Shown here piece after piece: positions 47,205-51,739 of a DNA stretch of 64,000 bases. The stretch is from Bacteriovoracia bacterium (GTDB lineage: Bacteria; Bdellovibrionota; UBA1018; JBFWNL01). The translations under genes were made by a program, and so were the position numbers. How positions within the stretch are numbered: the stretch's first letter is position 1; the number at the start of each line of letters is the position of its first letter. The notes beneath the pieces are model-generated. The model was not told the DNA's origin. It did no database searches and saw only the letters and a list, made by a program, of their open reading frames with translations. Location of the stretch: assembly GCA_050251055.1 (NCBI GenBank), contig JBFWNL010000003.1, positions 288,001-352,000 on the forward strand, read 5' to 3'.

Positions 47205-49229
47205 TTATAGCGTCCACTCCGACGAGGGAAAACGCCAGTCGATGAAATCAGAAACCTCCAGGCCTTCCTGCATCAGTACCCGGCGCAAGGACGGCATGCA
47301 GGTCTGGCCGCGGCAGCGGCCCTCCCCGCAGTGAGTGACGCTGAGCACAGCCTCGGAAGAGCGCAGCTTCGCTTGCCGTACGCGCTCGCGCACGTCTTCA
47401 AGCTTCACGCCCACGCAGGGACACAGGTATGCTGACGGATCTCCCGCAGGCGCGCCGGGCGTGGGACTGAAGCGGATCTGCATGCCCCGATGCATGGGGG
47501 TCTGGCAGGCGAGCTTTTTGTTGCCGTCGACTTCCACCACGCAAAGCTTGCAGCTCCCGTCGGGACAAAGCAGCGCGTCCTCGGCACGGGCGCGGCCGAT
47601 TTCGAAAAGTGAAACGGAGATCGGTACTCCCTCGCGCACGAGTCGCTTTTCCCCGTTCAATACGATCTCCACCTTGGCTTGCGGATCGGCGGCGTTGATG
47701 GACTTCACGAAGTCATCTTCCGCCCGCTCCTGCCGGGGCCGCTTCAATCCGCGCGCTTCCCAAACCAAGTGGCCCGGCACGGAAACCTGCACGAGCTGGG
47801 CTTCGCCCGTCACCGGCGTGGGGGTTTCGTCCACGGAAAATCCGGGCGGAAGCACGTCATCGTCATCGTCCGAAACACGCGCGCCTGGCAGCTTCTCGCC
47901 CTCGCCGATCACCTGATTCACGCGGGCCGAGCCCAAGCTTTCTCCCCGGCGATTCACGATCGTAACGAAATCTCCGCGCCGCCAACGGTCTTCCCCCCGC
48001 CAAGGGATCACGACGTCGGCCAAGGGTTGATCGTCGCCGGAGCGAATCATCACCGGCACCGAACTCGGGCACGCCTTTAGGCACGCTCCGCAACCCGTGC
48101 ACTTGTTTTCGATCAGGAAAGAGGCTTTCTCCGCCGAGCGGTCGATGCGGATCGCCTGTTCGGGGCACGCTCTCTCGCAAAGATTACAGCGAATCGATTC
48201 CGCGCATTCGATCGCGGCGACGAGCCGTCGTTTGTAAACCTGCTGGGGCACGCCGACGAATCCGCGAAGCTTCGCGGCGTCGCGCTCCTCGAGCCACTTT
48301 CCCTGATAAGCTGGGGTAAACGGCTCCTGCCGGTGGCGGGTGTGCGACTTCAGGCGCACCTTCGCGCGCCGGGCCTGCTGATCGACCCACTCCTTGCGCT
48401 CGCCCAAGTCAGCGACGAGCGCCTTCACGATGCGCGCCGCCAGCGCCCGCGCGCGCTCTTCCTCCAAACCCCATCCCTGCACGGAATCTTCCTGATCCTC
48501 GAACGCGGTCTGATCGAGCTCGAAAAGGAGCGAACCGGGTGGATACTCGCGCACGCCCGGCAAATCACGGTACGGGCCCGCCGAAATCACGCGCGCGACG
48601 TCGATGAGGCGCGTGCCCACGCTGTCTTTGAGTTTCATCTGCCAAATGAGCGGACCTTTCTCGGCGATTTCGAGCGGAGTCGCTTCCACGAGCTTTCCGC
48701 CCAACGTCTCGAACTGACGGCGCTCCACTTCCCAGCCCGCGTAGCGCTTCCCTTGCCACTGGGCGGAAGCTTCCACGCAGTATACTTCCGGCGCCTTCGC
48801 CATCCGCAGGAGCCGCACTCCGAAACGAAGGGCGTCGTTACCGCTGCCCAGGATCGCCACCGCCGGCTCCCACGTGACCTGGCTCTCCACCAAAAGTCGT
48901 TGAGCGGTCGCGAGCGGAATGAGTGCCGGCGTACGCCAGCCCGGCACCGGGTCGCCGAACTCGGCGGGACTCGCCAGCCGTACGACGGCCTTGGCGTGAA
49001 TGCGATGAATGCGTTTTTGGGAATCTTCGACGAAAACGATGCCACCCACGCCCGGGAGGGGGATCACCCCCTGCACGGCCAGATCGCGGCCGCCAAAAAG
49101 CCCGACGCGTAATCCTAACTCGTTACAGATGGAAGCAAGCGTGCGCGCGCCGATACTAGGCCAGGTCCGCACGCGCGGGCCCGCGACGATCACGACATCG
49201 AAACTTCCGGAGCGGACCGACAAGCTCAT
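47205..49229 (-). CDS. Multi-Fe-S fusion protein: degenerate pyridine-nucleotide flavoprotein domain, 2x[4Fe-4S], [2Fe-2S] (Fer2_4-like) and BFD-like [2Fe-2S]
   Basis: ECAESIRCNLCERACP, CTGCGACLKACP, CPDGSCKLC...ACQT, LCPC...CGEGRCRGQTC; ATG 49229 overlaps the upstream stop (ATGA) with a GAGG SD. Confidence 0.75.
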   Translation of the reverse strand: MSLSVRSGSFDVVIVAGPRVRTWPSIGARTLASICNELGLRVGLFGGRDLAVQGVIPLPGVGGIVFVEDSQKRIHRIHAKAVVRLASPAEFGDPVPGWRTPALIPLATAQRLLVESQVTWEPAVAILGSGNDALRFGVRLLRMAKAPEVYCVEASAQWQGKRYAGWEVERRQFETLGGKLVEATPLEIAEKGPLIWQMKLKDSVGTRLIDVARVISAGPYRDLPGVREYPPGSLLFELDQTAFEDQEDSVQGWGLEEERARALAARIVKALVADLGERKEWVDQQARRAKVRLKSHTRHRQEPFTPAYQGKWLEERDAAKLRGFVGVPQQVYKRRLVAAIECAESIRCNLCERACPEQAIRIDRSAEKASFLIENKCTGCGACLKACPSSVPVMIRSGDDQPLADVVIPWRGEDRWRRGDFVTIVNRRGESLGSARVNQVIGEGEKLPGARVSDDDDDVLPPGFSVDETPTPVTGEAQLVQVSVPGHLVWEARGLKRPRQERAEDDFVKSINAADPQAKVEIVLNGEKRLVREGVPISVSLFEIGRARAEDALLCPDGSCKLCVVEVDGNKKLACQTPMHRGMQIRFSPTPGAPAGDPSAYLCPCVGVKLEDVRERVRQAKLRSSEAVLSVTHCGEGRCRGQTCMPSLRRVLMQEGLEVSDFIDWRFPSSEWTL

Positions 49230-50464: not shown

Positions 50465-51739
50465 TTAACCGGCTCCCGACGTTTCCCGCCCGGAGCCCGC
50501 GGGTTCAGCCAGCACGCCCATCACCCGTTTAAGCGCGGTGTGGATCTGGGCTTTCTTATATTCAAGGTGCGAGCTGCGACCGCGCTCGTTTTCCTCGAAG
50601 CTTTTCTGATCCATGATCTGGACCTCGAAAGGATAAAAGAAGCGCACCTCGCGCTGCAGGTACTTGAGATCGATATCCTTCACCATCGTGGCGAAGCGGT
50701 CCGGCAGGTTTTCCTTCTTCGCCTCCGCCTTAAGCGCCTTGATGTCGTCGAAAAGTGGGTTTGTGAACTTAATGAGCTGCCGGCAGGTAAACTGAATGGA
50801 GCGGTAAAACGCGCTGGAATGCGGGTTGTCGGTCGCGAGCTGAGGCGGACGAATGGAACGCAGCAGTTCCTCGCGCAACGCCTCCTCGCCGACTTGCCCC
50901 CGATTGGCCATCACCAAGAGCTCCTCAAGACGGCTACGGAAGAACGAAAGATCGATGAGCGTATTGCGCGAGCGGCTGGCCTTGATGTTGGCCGGCATGA
51001 CCACCATCGAGTCCTTCAGGTACTTCACCACCCGCAGCGAATCGAGCACGGTGGGCGTCACGATGCGCATGCCGACGCGGTCGAAGATTTCGTCGGTGAC
51101 GTTTTCGCGCTTGAAGAGCACCTTCAGCAGCATCGACTCGCGCGATTTCTTGGGCTTGGTCTCGAACGCGGTAAGCGGGATGCGCGCGTCGCCCATGTAA
51201 AGCTCGCCCTGGTCCCCGCGGTGGATCACCTTGTAGAAACGGTCGAAAATCTGCTTCTGGATGTCGGAAAAATAGGGTGTGCGCACGTCCTTGTCGATGT
51301 GGGCGATCGCGTGAACGACCTTCAGCAGGCTGCAAGCCCAGGCGCGCAGGGCCTGGCCGGCCGCGTCCGCCTGCTGGCCCGGATAAGTGTGTCCGGCCAT
51401 CAGCAGGAGATCGCGCATGTCGGTCACTTCAAGGATCTTGCGCGGAATCTCGAGCTTCAGCCCGTCGGGATTCTCCGGCTGCAGGAAGTACTTCCGTACG
51501 AAGTTGATCGCCTCATGAAAGTTCCCCAGCGCCTCGGCACGCTCGATGGGATCGGCCAGGTCGAAGCCGTAGCTCTGCATGAAACGGTCGGCGTCTTCAT
51601 GCGTCTTCAAGCGGAAACCGGACAGCCCGATATCGGTATCGATGATGGAAACGCCGCCGATCATGACGTCGAGCACTTCGAAACGGAAGTCGTACTTTCC
51701 GTAAATCGAATCAAGGGCTTTGCGGTCAGGCGGTTGCAT
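50465..51739 (-). CDS. TIGR04552/TIGR04562-like protein with RelA/SpoT-type nucleotidyltransferase motifs
   Basis: KPKKSRESMLLKVLFK...IFDRVGMRIV...NPHSSAFYRSIQFT...FFYPFEVQIMD...SSHLEYK. Confidence 0.8.
   Translation of the reverse strand: MQPPDRKALDSIYGKYDFRFEVLDVMIGGVSIIDTDIGLSGFRLKTHEDADRFMQSYGFDLADPIERAEALGNFHEAINFVRKYFLQPENPDGLKLEIPRKILEVTDMRDLLLMAGHTYPGQQADAAGQALRAWACSLLKVVHAIAHIDKDVRTPYFSDIQKQIFDRFYKVIHRGDQGELYMGDARIPLTAFETKPKKSRESMLLKVLFKRENVTDEIFDRVGMRIVTPTVLDSLRVVKYLKDSMVVMPANIKASRSRNTLIDLSFFRSRLEELLVMANRGQVGEEALREELLRSIRPPQLATDNPHSSAFYRSIQFTCRQLIKFTNPLFDDIKALKAEAKKENLPDRFATMVKDIDLKYLQREVRFFYPFEVQIMDQKSFEENERGRSSHLEYKKAQIHTALKRVMGVLAEPAGSGRETSGAG

Follow-up and report, generated by a model that had tools for sequence, protein, structure and literature searches.

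Enzymes of the RelA/SpoT family are the core of bacterial stress signaling, and recent findings add the synthesis of other nucleotides and the modification of transfer RNA to the activities of this family. The locus presented in this study, g1-g2-g3, lies in a stretch of 64,000 nucleotides from the genome of a Bacteriovoracia bacterium (assembly GCA_050251055.1, contig JBFWNL010000003.1, positions 288,001 to 352,000), which is called the window below and from whose first letter all positions are counted. The described systems closest to g1 are the small alarmone synthetases (SAS), RelQ/SAS1 and RelP/SAS2, and the synthetase domain of the long Rel, RelA, and SpoT enzymes; those closest to g2 and g3 are the dehydrogenases of the D-amino acid oxidase (DAO) class, i.e., PDH1 of Pyrococcus, the opine dehydrogenase OdhABC, D-hydroxyproline dehydrogenase, HcnABC, and sarcosine oxidase. 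By sequence comparison, g1 is a deeply diverged member of the RelA/SpoT family, its constant partner (g2/g3) is a predicted fused-subunit DAO-class flavo-iron-sulfur dehydrogenase, and the three genes form an operon, translationally coupled and conserved in Bdellovibrionota.

According to the RelA/SpoT homolog (RSH) classification paper, a conserved operon of two or three genes, one of them for a RelA/SpoT-like single enzyme, can be a toxic SAS (toxSAS) system (PMC7229694); some toxSAS enzymes are described as using nonguanosine acceptors. The available main text of the same classification does not mention Bdellovibrio or Myxococcus, and its supplementary text mentions Bdellovibrio only as having a long Rel (PMC7229694). 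For the opine, D-hydroxyproline, and L-proline dehydrogenases, the part of PMC4575208 available gives the motif C-x4-C-x2-C-x11~12-C for the gamma subunit and C-x-C-x15~20-C-x4-C for the alpha subunit; it places the gamma-like part at the N terminus of the alpha subunit of L-proline dehydrogenase and has FAD (flavin adenine dinucleotide) bound by the alpha subunit of opine dehydrogenase.

Literature searches, on which the claim of novelty rests, found no description of the g1-g2-g3 operon, in keeping with the initial annotation of this DNA, which had called the combination undescribed. No publication that pairs Bdellovibrio with a small alarmone synthetase or with RelA/SpoT was found, none of the matches listed joins an alarmone synthetase with an iron-sulfur or FAD-dependent oxidoreductase, and the linkage of g2/g3-like proteins to a RelA/SpoT-like gene was not found in the available literature. 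No studied member of the g1 family was found either: no mention of TIGR04562 turned up in the literature, and TIGR04552, to which g1 also belongs, is mentioned only in passing. Two TIGR04552 proteins appear in the parts of the sources available, namely, DOE51_RS08710 of Bdellovibrio sp. NC01, which is a row with an indel in the mutation table of an evolution experiment (PMC9888234), and MXAN_4858 of Myxococcus xanthus (Myxococcota), which is located near the G1 gliding-motility cluster and whose fitness patterns in a screen of transposon mutants are glt-like (bioRxiv 10.64898/2026.08.28.747804).

The three genes are bounded by a convergent and a divergent neighbor and form a unit (Table 1). 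Their tight coupling, as asserted by the initial annotation, is read directly in the sequence, with the TAA of g1 and the ATG of g2 abutting at 50465/50464 and an ATGA shared by g2 and g3 at 49226-49229. A pattern-based scan, in which each species was represented by a single genome, yielded 599 candidate stretches with 540 g1 relatives among them, and the linkage counts given here are based on the best 80 of these 540. By tblastn, 75 of these 80 loci have g1, g2, and g3 in the same order and all on the same strand. Among the other five, two (L046 and L058) end too early, and three (L061, L078, and L079) carry a g3 at 26 to 30% identity together with a divergent DAO-like middle gene that tblastn did not match. 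This middle gene matches the first 84 columns of the g2 profile (hhalign probability of 96%), and Pfam DAO was found in one of the three copies (27.4 bits against a cutoff of 27.9). Because the three divergent middle genes count as g2-like and two loci end early, the trio is present in 78 of 78 informative loci; the linkage on which the initial annotation had staked its reading thus extends across these relatives. The relatives of g1 match at E values of 1e-113 to 1e-170, and these values, together with the presence of the trio in 75 of the 80 loci, indicate that g1, g2, and g3 are real genes rather than chance open reading frames (ORFs).

The spacing of the genes is also conserved. The distance between g2 and g3 is an overlap of 4 nucleotides (nt) in 46 of the 75 loci and falls within +/-20 nt in 72, and that between g1 and g2 is within +/-20 nt in 64; the other 11 g1-g2 spacings probably reflect start-codon choices of the script used. 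The trio is kept where the flanks differ (L043, L052, L063, and L066 to L080). In a mirror-tree comparison of 22 loci, the g1-g2 pair had the highest correlation (r = 0.85, partial r = 0.67 when controlling for RecG), and the control pair of g1 and the neighboring hydrolase gave r = 0.72 and partial r = 0.46; with 22 loci, this is a weak lead. The named relatives of g1, g2, and g3 are from Bdellovibrionota, Oligoflexia, or Bacteriovoracaceae genomes, and the named homologues of g2 and of g3, among the 120 listed for each, are of Bdellovibrionota lineage except for one that is also labeled Methylotenera. The titles of L078 and L063/L067 name candidate division WWE3, Lysobacteraceae, and Nitrosovibrio, yet these contigs hold the operon in typical Bdellovibrionota synteny and are probably misbinned or mislabeled.

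Sequence and predicted fold of g1

The g1 protein matches the NCBIfam families TIGR04562 (362.9 bits, cutoff of 140) and TIGR04552 (345.2 bits, cutoff of 125), and the matches cover residues 18 to 407. As in the SAS enzymes, no HD, TGS, or ACT domain was detected in g1 by Pfam, and the Pfam, NCBIfam, and fold matches together bear out the initial description of g1 as RelA/SpoT synthetase-like without hydrolase, TGS, or ACT domains. The order of motifs is common to g1, the SAS enzymes, and the long Rel enzymes (K-x3-S-x3-K, D-x2-G-x-R, Y-x-S, E-x-Q, and H-x2-Y-K), and in g1 the residues are K198-x3-S202-x3-K206, D220-x2-G223-x-R225, Y312-x-S-x-Q316, E372-x-Q374-x2-D377, and H391-x2-Y394-K395. 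The strings quoted in the initial annotation are all present, i.e., KSRESMLLK, IFDRVGMR, SSAFYRSI, and FEVQI in g1, GTGVAP in g2, and VVIVAGPRVRTWPSIG in g3. To this common core, g1 adds a conserved helical N-terminal domain of approximately 170 residues, for which no Pfam match was found, and an insert of approximately 70 residues (residues 244 to 314) within the synthetase-like domain.

The AlphaFold model of g1, built on a 29-sequence alignment (A1), has a predicted local distance difference test score (pLDDT) of 77.3 and a predicted template modeling score (pTM) of 0.64 and consists of a helical N-terminal part followed by an alpha/beta part. In a Foldseek search of the PDB, the matches listed, which extend to rank 43, are without exception small alarmone synthetases or Rel/RelA proteins, in agreement with the likeness to RelQ/RelP for which the initial annotation had suggested structure prediction as a check, though the matches are numerically weak; the top ones, RelP (6ex0) and SAS1 (5ded), have probabilities of 0.96 to 0.99, E values of about 1e-2 (best, 1.1e-2), and template modeling (TM) scores of 0.19 to 0.44.

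Searched with a profile, a set of 1.84 billion representatives, clustered at 50% identity, contained 651 g1-family representatives at an E value of ≤0.001 and 229 at ≤1e-30, most of which are 340 to 430 residues long among the 150 matches listed. In ESM Atlas, clusters of the family occur in Bdellovibrionota, Myxococcota, and Acidobacteriota. Pfam RelA_SpoT was found at an E value of ≤0.01 in 15 of 20 distant representatives and exceeded the 27-bit cutoff in 6 of the 20; since several of these matches cover positions 3 to 111 of the 113 in the profile, the whole synthetase domain appears to be present, interrupted by the insert. A fusion of g1 with g2 was also considered and rejected: the only long member among the 150 listed (P0369, 721 residues) has a C-terminal part that is unrelated to g2 (hhalign probability of 0.9%) and in which no Pfam domain was found, and this sole long representative provides no Rosetta-stone evidence for the pair.

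Residue conservation was assessed in 123 family members with 26 to 51% identity to g1. Lys198, Lys206, Asp220, and Gly223 are kept in all 123 sequences, Glu372 and Tyr394 in 122, Gln374 in 121, Arg225 in 117, and Ser202 and His391 in 115 each, and they align with R.K...S...K, D..A.R, E.Q.RT, and H..YK of a Bdellovibrio long Rel. On the other hand, the His of Y.S.H is replaced by Gln in 89 of the 123 members (Gln316 in g1) and retained in 21, the Arg of E.Q.RT (position 376) is always Leu, Met, Val, Thr, or Ile, and the Thr of the same motif is Asp in 117 (Asp377 in g1), so that the family has E-x-Q-x-(hydrophobic)-D for the E-x-Q-x-R-T of the SAS and long Rel enzymes. The conserved residues are presumably those that bind the donor adenosine triphosphate (ATP) and Mg2+, and we take the changed positions to be those that contact the guanosine acceptor, GDP or GTP, as in RSH structures. 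On that assignment of roles, the g1 family departs from the guanosine-acceptor pattern of the strict (p)ppGpp synthetases, and the motifs suggest that g1 is probably an active pyrophosphokinase with an acceptor other than GDP or GTP. As the acceptor pocket differs from that of the (p)ppGpp synthetases, g1 probably makes a product other than (p)ppGpp.

The flavoprotein-like g2 and the iron-sulfur subunit g3

The model of g2, based on 35 sequences (A2), has a pLDDT of 93.4 and a pTM of 0.92 and is, as modeled, a complete and confident two-domain DAO fold, as the DAO-like character given to g2 in the initial annotation implied. Foldseek returned at least 500 PDB matches at an E value of ≤0.001, the best of which is glycine oxidase (4ysh_B; E value of 2.4e-16, TM scores of 0.63/0.69), followed by others that include monomeric sarcosine oxidase, NikD, ThiO, and opine dehydrogenase, a flavin-containing enzyme (7fgp_A). 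Also among the matches are the beta subunits of PDH1 from P. horikoshii (1y56_B) and of the heterotetrameric sarcosine oxidase SOX (2gag_B). The E values of the DAO-fold matches, those to the beta subunits of PDH1, SOX, and opine dehydrogenase included, are about 1e-16 to 1e-13, and in fold g2 matches the beta subunits of PDH1, OdhABC, and sarcosine oxidase. At the sequence level, Pfam DAO was found in 4 of the 35 g2 homologues, a search of PDB chains with g2 alone found nothing, and the matches of profile A2 were confined to the first 28 residues of flavoproteins, at E values of 0.038 or worse.

The dinucleotide-binding loop of g2 has the pattern G14-x-G16-x-x-P19, i.e., GxGxxP, which sets it apart from the DAO-class beta subunits. 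Gly14, Gly16, and Ala18 are invariant in A2, Thr15 is kept in at least 90% of the sequences, and Pro19 in at least 80% across 76 sequences. The loop is followed by a conserved LLNP(E/D) at the spacing usual for the ribose-binding acid, which at the end of the second strand is Glu39 in g2 and Asp in the consensus, and the middle gene of the divergent sister lineage has a canonical loop (GSGSAA, GSGATA, or GSGCAA). Because the GTGxAP variant is conserved, LLNP(E/D) follows it, and the sister lineage is canonical, g2 probably still binds a dinucleotide. The initial annotation had described the flavo-iron-sulfur part as degenerate, a former amine oxidase. That description fits the first Rossmann loop of g3, which is truly noncanonical, but not g2, whose loop is a conserved variant, and a former oxidase in the sense in which it was written is not supported by these features of g2. 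Arg110 and Arg112 of g2 are invariant in A2, and Arg189 and Arg191 are nearly so.

In g3, 16 cysteine residues are arranged as putative ligands of four iron-sulfur modules, and none of the 16 varies among the 31 aligned sequences (A3) or is missing from any of the 3 members of the divergent lineage; the initial observation that the motifs of all four modules are kept is borne out. Pfam detects Fer4_7 in g3 (E value of 1.5e-9, present in 31 of 31 homologues), an Fer4 dicluster at residues 346 to 390, and Fer2_4 at residues 518 to 586 (E value of 1.7e-7, 30 of 31 homologues), and Fer2_BFD is found in 14 of the 31 homologues (best E value of 6e-10). Sequence searches of PDB chains with g3 matched only the ferredoxin and 2Fe-2S modules. 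The middle domain, for which Pfam gave no family match in g3 or its homologues, has the conserved blocks PWRG, NRRGE.LGS.RV, and VP.HL.WEARG. The spacing of the gamma-type [2Fe-2S] motif in g3 equals that of the gamma-subunit motif in the available part of PMC4575208, and the C-x-C...C-x4-C of the BFD-type motif is that of the alpha subunits, whereas its spacer is 33 residues rather than the 15 to 20 quoted there. Since the [2Fe-2S] motifs resemble those of both subunits and the gamma-like part occupies another position, g3 is, by sequence, related to the alpha (plus gamma) subunits but fused and reordered, and it has an extra 2x[4Fe-4S] module: the alpha-like, ferredoxin, and gamma-like parts form one chain in which the gamma-like part is C-terminal. 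This agrees with the permuted modules of sarcosine oxidase, HcnABC, and proline dehydrogenase-type complexes, with a [2Fe-2S] module near the C terminus, that had been described for g3.

Residues 1 to 335 of g3, which take in the N-terminal module, gave no significant Pfam family match. Their structure neighbors in ESM Atlas (TM scores of 0.51 to 0.60) are Pyr_redox_2 proteins, including clusters named as the sarcosine oxidase alpha family, which makes the likeness of this module to Pyr_redox_2 or SoxA a lead only. Unlike the alpha subunits of the class, g3 has no N-terminal GxGxxG ADP-binding motif; the consensus of its first loop in A3 is AGPRVxxWPSxG, in which Pro18, Pro24, and Gly27 are invariant and Trp23 is kept in at least 90% of the sequences, and no acid follows the second strand. 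The second Rossmann signature of g3 is canonical in the main lineage.

Possible functions of the operon

The reading that we favor, with a probability of roughly 0.4, is that a working flavo-iron-sulfur dehydrogenase (g2/g3) is coupled to an active pyrophosphokinase (g1) with a nonguanine acceptor. By homology to the proline, opine, and D-hydroxyproline dehydrogenases, hydrogen cyanide (HCN) synthase, and sarcosine oxidase, g2, with its DAO fold and a predicted dinucleotide cofactor (probably FAD), and g3, with four predicted iron-sulfur clusters, would form a heteromeric dehydrogenase in which a C-N substrate is oxidized at g2 and the electrons pass from the g2 flavin through the chain of [2Fe-2S] and [4Fe-4S] clusters in g3 to an external acceptor. 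The Rossmann domains of g3 may be mainly nucleotide-binding or structural, by analogy with the alpha subunits of the class. The motifs of g1 suggest a catalytically competent RelA/SpoT-type enzyme that would use ATP to make a pyrophosphorylated nucleotide, probably not (p)ppGpp. It would act together with the dehydrogenase, with g2 as the likeliest binding partner, and its nucleotide output would report, or be gated by, the flux of substrate or electrons through g2/g3.

Stated in its most specific form, which we consider unlikely as it stands, this would be an undescribed second-messenger system of Bdellovibrionota, in which g1 makes a nonguanosine pyrophosphorylated nucleotide (or modifies another acceptor) only while the bound g2/g3 turns over a specific amine, e.g., one derived from prey, or holds a given redox state. 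If true, it would wire metabolic electron flux straight to alarmone-like signaling in predatory bacteria. What the sequences suggest more broadly is a RelA/SpoT-like family with an apparently intact catalytic core, a changed acceptor site, and a four-cluster flavo-iron-sulfur dehydrogenase as its predicted partner in 78 of 78 informative Bdellovibrionota loci; if the coupling is functional, it would provide a new route for redox or catabolic information into nucleotide signaling and a starting point for studies of physiology in predatory bacteria.

Several results weigh against the coupled dehydrogenase and pyrophosphokinase. The sole Pfam match of g1, RelA_SpoT (PF04607), is below its cutoff (26.0 bits against 27; E value of 1.2e-5, residues 198 to 253, profile positions 4 to 58), searches of PDB chains with g1 alone and with profile A1 found nothing meaningful, and the fold match is numerically weak, with nothing at an E value of ≤0.001, TM scores of 0.19 to 0.44, and a model pLDDT of 77. 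No Pfam family matched g2 at an E value of ≤0.1, and DAO (PF01266) was therefore not matched. The first Rossmann loop of g3 is noncanonical in all lineages, with only Trp23 kept in the divergent one, and in the second loop of that lineage Gly130 and Ala133 are replaced by Ser/Thr and Val while Gly128 and Glu153 are retained. The linkage rests on only the best 80 of the 540 g1 relatives, in which the flanking genes are also syntenic (pgpA in 52 loci, an alpha/beta hydrolase gene in 50, a helix-turn-helix [HTH] gene in 47, and recG in 43). The conserved neighborhood order, recA-cinA-pgpA, the operon, and hydrolase-HTH-recG-greA, is found in many loci, and because these flanking housekeeping genes keep their places too, part of the linkage of the trio is general gene-order conservation. 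In addition, the g1 family occurs in Myxococcota and Acidobacteriota, where no homologue of g2 or g3 was seen among the 120 listed for each; since the g1 family is wider than the g2 and g3 families among the homologues listed, g1 may act without them.

A single small-molecule pathway would account for the same operon without signaling, and we treat it as a serious possibility, though on balance not a likely one. Here g1 would activate a nucleoside, a nucleotide, or another hydroxyl compound by pyrophosphorylation, g2/g3 would oxidize either this molecule or its precursor at a C-N bond, and a modified nucleotide, cofactor, or metabolite would be made or degraded. The tightness of the operon, the catalytically competent look of all three enzymes, and the acceptor-side residues of g1, which are unlike those of guanosine-specific enzymes, are all compatible with such a pathway; Arg110, Arg112, Arg189, and Arg191 of g2 could bind a phosphorylated substrate, and DAO-fold enzymes are often biosynthetic, NikD and ThiO being among the fold matches of g2. 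However, we know of no RelA/SpoT-family enzyme with a biosynthetic role, which counts against it, as do the lack of further conserved pathway genes around the operon, whose flanks are housekeeping genes on other strands, and, as a lead only, the occurrence of the g1 family in phyla where no g2 or g3 homologue was seen among those listed.

The proposal of the initial annotation, in which g2/g3, once an amine oxidase, no longer carries out flavin catalysis and serves as an iron-sulfur redox sensor or scaffold regulating g1, appears distinctly improbable. It is favored by the noncanonical first loop of g3 in all lineages, with no acid at the end of the second strand, by the divergent lineage, in which the second loop of g3 is not conserved whereas all 16 cysteines are, and by g2, which is the fastest-evolving member of the trio (mean distance of 1.03, compared with 0.57 for g1) and has no Pfam DAO match. 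Nevertheless, g2 retains G-x-G, Ala18, and LLNP(E/D), its sister lineage has the canonical GxGxxA, and it is modeled at a pLDDT of 93 as what would be a complete DAO enzyme. Because alpha subunits of the class bind nonredox nucleotides (NAD+ in sarcosine oxidase and, as the 2005 title by Tsuge reportedly has it, ATP in P. horikoshii PDH1), a noncanonical alpha loop does not imply a dead enzyme. Moreover, four clusters in a row would resemble a wire more than a sensor.

It is equally improbable, in our estimation, that the genes are merely cotranscribed, with g1 acting alone, as its Myxococcota relatives may, and g2/g3 being an ordinary catabolic dehydrogenase on a shared promoter. The synteny of the whole neighborhood in many loci indicates that gene order is stable here, and the wider distribution of the g1 family among the homologues listed would be expected if g1 acted alone. 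Chance cotranscription accounts poorly for the 78 of 78 informative loci in which the three genes share a strand and their codons overlap or abut, even where the flanks are different, and for the persistence of the trio where g2 and g3 have diverged to 26 to 30% identity or below detection. Should the pathway or chance cotranscription be all that joins the three genes, the operon would still define an unstudied fused variant of the proline/opine dehydrogenase class.

A toxSAS toxin-antitoxin or phage defense module is highly improbable: g1 shares with the toxSAS operons (FaRel, FaRel2, PhRel, and CapRel) that a single RelA/SpoT-like enzyme is encoded in a conserved operon of several overlapping genes, an arrangement that toxSAS systems can have (PMC7229694), but its partners are redox proteins of 412 and 674 residues rather than small antitoxins or alarmone hydrolases, the site is a fixed chromosomal one in a stable housekeeping setting and not a mobile context, and the PADLOC defense models gave no match for g1 or g2 and only a weak one (E value of 0.0059) in the ferredoxin region of g3.

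Gene calls, upstream region, and neighboring genes

The coordinates of the genes and their features are listed in Table 1. The longest ORF of g3 in the ORF list runs back to a TTG at 49427. The 674-residue form was preferred over this start because the homologues found by tblastn begin to align at residues 1 to 8 of that form and because the protein record P0124 is identical to it over 674 residues. For g1, the record P0004 is a 387-residue form with 100% identity over 91% of g1, and therefore represents a different start call or a partial record; the long form is favored because the N-terminal residues Phe18, Trp20, Leu23, Asp24, Gly29, Ser31, and Asp34 are conserved in A1.

Table 1. Genes, junctions, and protein features of the g1-g2-g3 locus (positions in the window)
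Feature	Position	Strand	Description
g1	50465-51739	-	424 residues; TIGR04562/TIGR04552 protein, putative divergent RelA/SpoT-synthetase-like pyrophosphokinase
g1 N-terminal all-helical domain	51230-51739	-	About residues 1-170, from the secondary structure of the model; Trp134, Cys136, Lys140, His143, His147, Asp149, and Asp151 invariant (A1)
g1 synthetase-like domain	50507-51229	-	About residues 171-411
g1 stop abutting g2 start	50462-50467	-	TAA 50467-50465, ATG 50464-50462; junction reads ggTTAAATGgcg
g2	49226-50464	-	412 residues; DAO-fold flavoprotein-like subunit, beta-subunit-like
g2 dinucleotide-binding loop variant	50408-50425	-	G14-T-G16-V-A18-P19 (GTGVAP), residues 14-19
ATGA overlap, g2 stop and g3 start	49226-49229	-	Context cggATGAgc
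g3	47205-49229	-	674 residues from ATG; fused alpha-like/ferredoxin/gamma-like/BFD-like iron-sulfur subunit
g3 N-terminal module	48240-49229	-	About residues 1-330; two Rossmann-like domains; Pyr_redox_2/sarcosine oxidase alpha-like, lead only
g3 first Rossmann loop, noncanonical	49149-49196	-	VVIVAGPRVRTWPSIG, residues 12-27
g3 second Rossmann signature	48771-48860	-	G128-x-G130-x2-A133...E153; Gly128 invariant; Gly130, Ala133, and Glu153 at least 90% (A3)
g3 2x[4Fe-4S] ferredoxin module	48057-48218	-	C342-x5-C348-x2-C351-x3-C355; C377-x2-C380-x2-C383-x3-C387
g3 middle domain	47685-48032	-	About residues 400-515; low-complexity acidic insert in the copy of the window
g3 gamma-type [2Fe-2S] module	47472-47678	-	C555-x4-C560-x2-C563-x11-C575
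g3 BFD-type [2Fe-2S] module	47292-47429	-	C603-x-C605-x33-C639-x4-C644
Convergent flanking gene	45916-47199	+	Lactonase-type propeller
Divergent flanking gene	51942-53582	+	Weak cytochrome c match

An Rfam scan of positions 46500 to 52500 gave no match to a riboswitch or RNA leader at an E value of ≤1, and the counts of promoters and terminators were not above those of shuffled sequence. A sigma-54-like site, TGGCAC-N5-TCGC, is located at 51760-51775 (minus strand), approximately 20 to 35 nt 5' of the g1 ATG, and agrees with 9 of the 11 positions of what we take to be the consensus. It was rejected as a conserved feature, as a score of 9 was reached in only 2 of 72 upstream regions (that of the window itself and that of one relative), compared with 8 of 355 control windows.

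The wider window contains the housekeeping genes tuf, fusA, rpsG, lon, clpX, clpP, greA, recG, pgpA, cinA, and recA, and no mobile-element or defense context was seen in its 64 kb. Two GH43-like paralogues, at 44332-45870 (minus strand) and 53753-55285 (plus strand), are inverted on either side of the operon and share 34% identity over 490 residues (E value of 1e-82), each lying beyond one extra gene, i.e., the lactonase-type propeller gene and the cytochrome c-like gene. Because pgpA and the alpha/beta hydrolase gene directly flank the operon in most related loci, the four genes appear to have been inserted, on both sides of it, in this lineage specifically. A Rieske [2Fe-2S] protein (55896-56909, minus strand) and an IucA/IucC and FhuF-like protein (57109-58443, plus strand) are encoded between pgpA and cinA-recA in the window, whereas pgpA, cinA, and recA adjoin in many related loci. 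A protein with DUF5122 beta-propeller repeats (41376-42770, minus strand) is encoded between recG and the HTH gene. At some distance from these genes, an ORF of 1668 residues (18159-23165, plus strand) with SprB-repeat and BiPBP_C matches probably encodes a large surface or adhesin-type protein, and several ORFs of 380 to 600 residues for which no Pfam family was found lie beside it (12013-17919 and 23193-24425).

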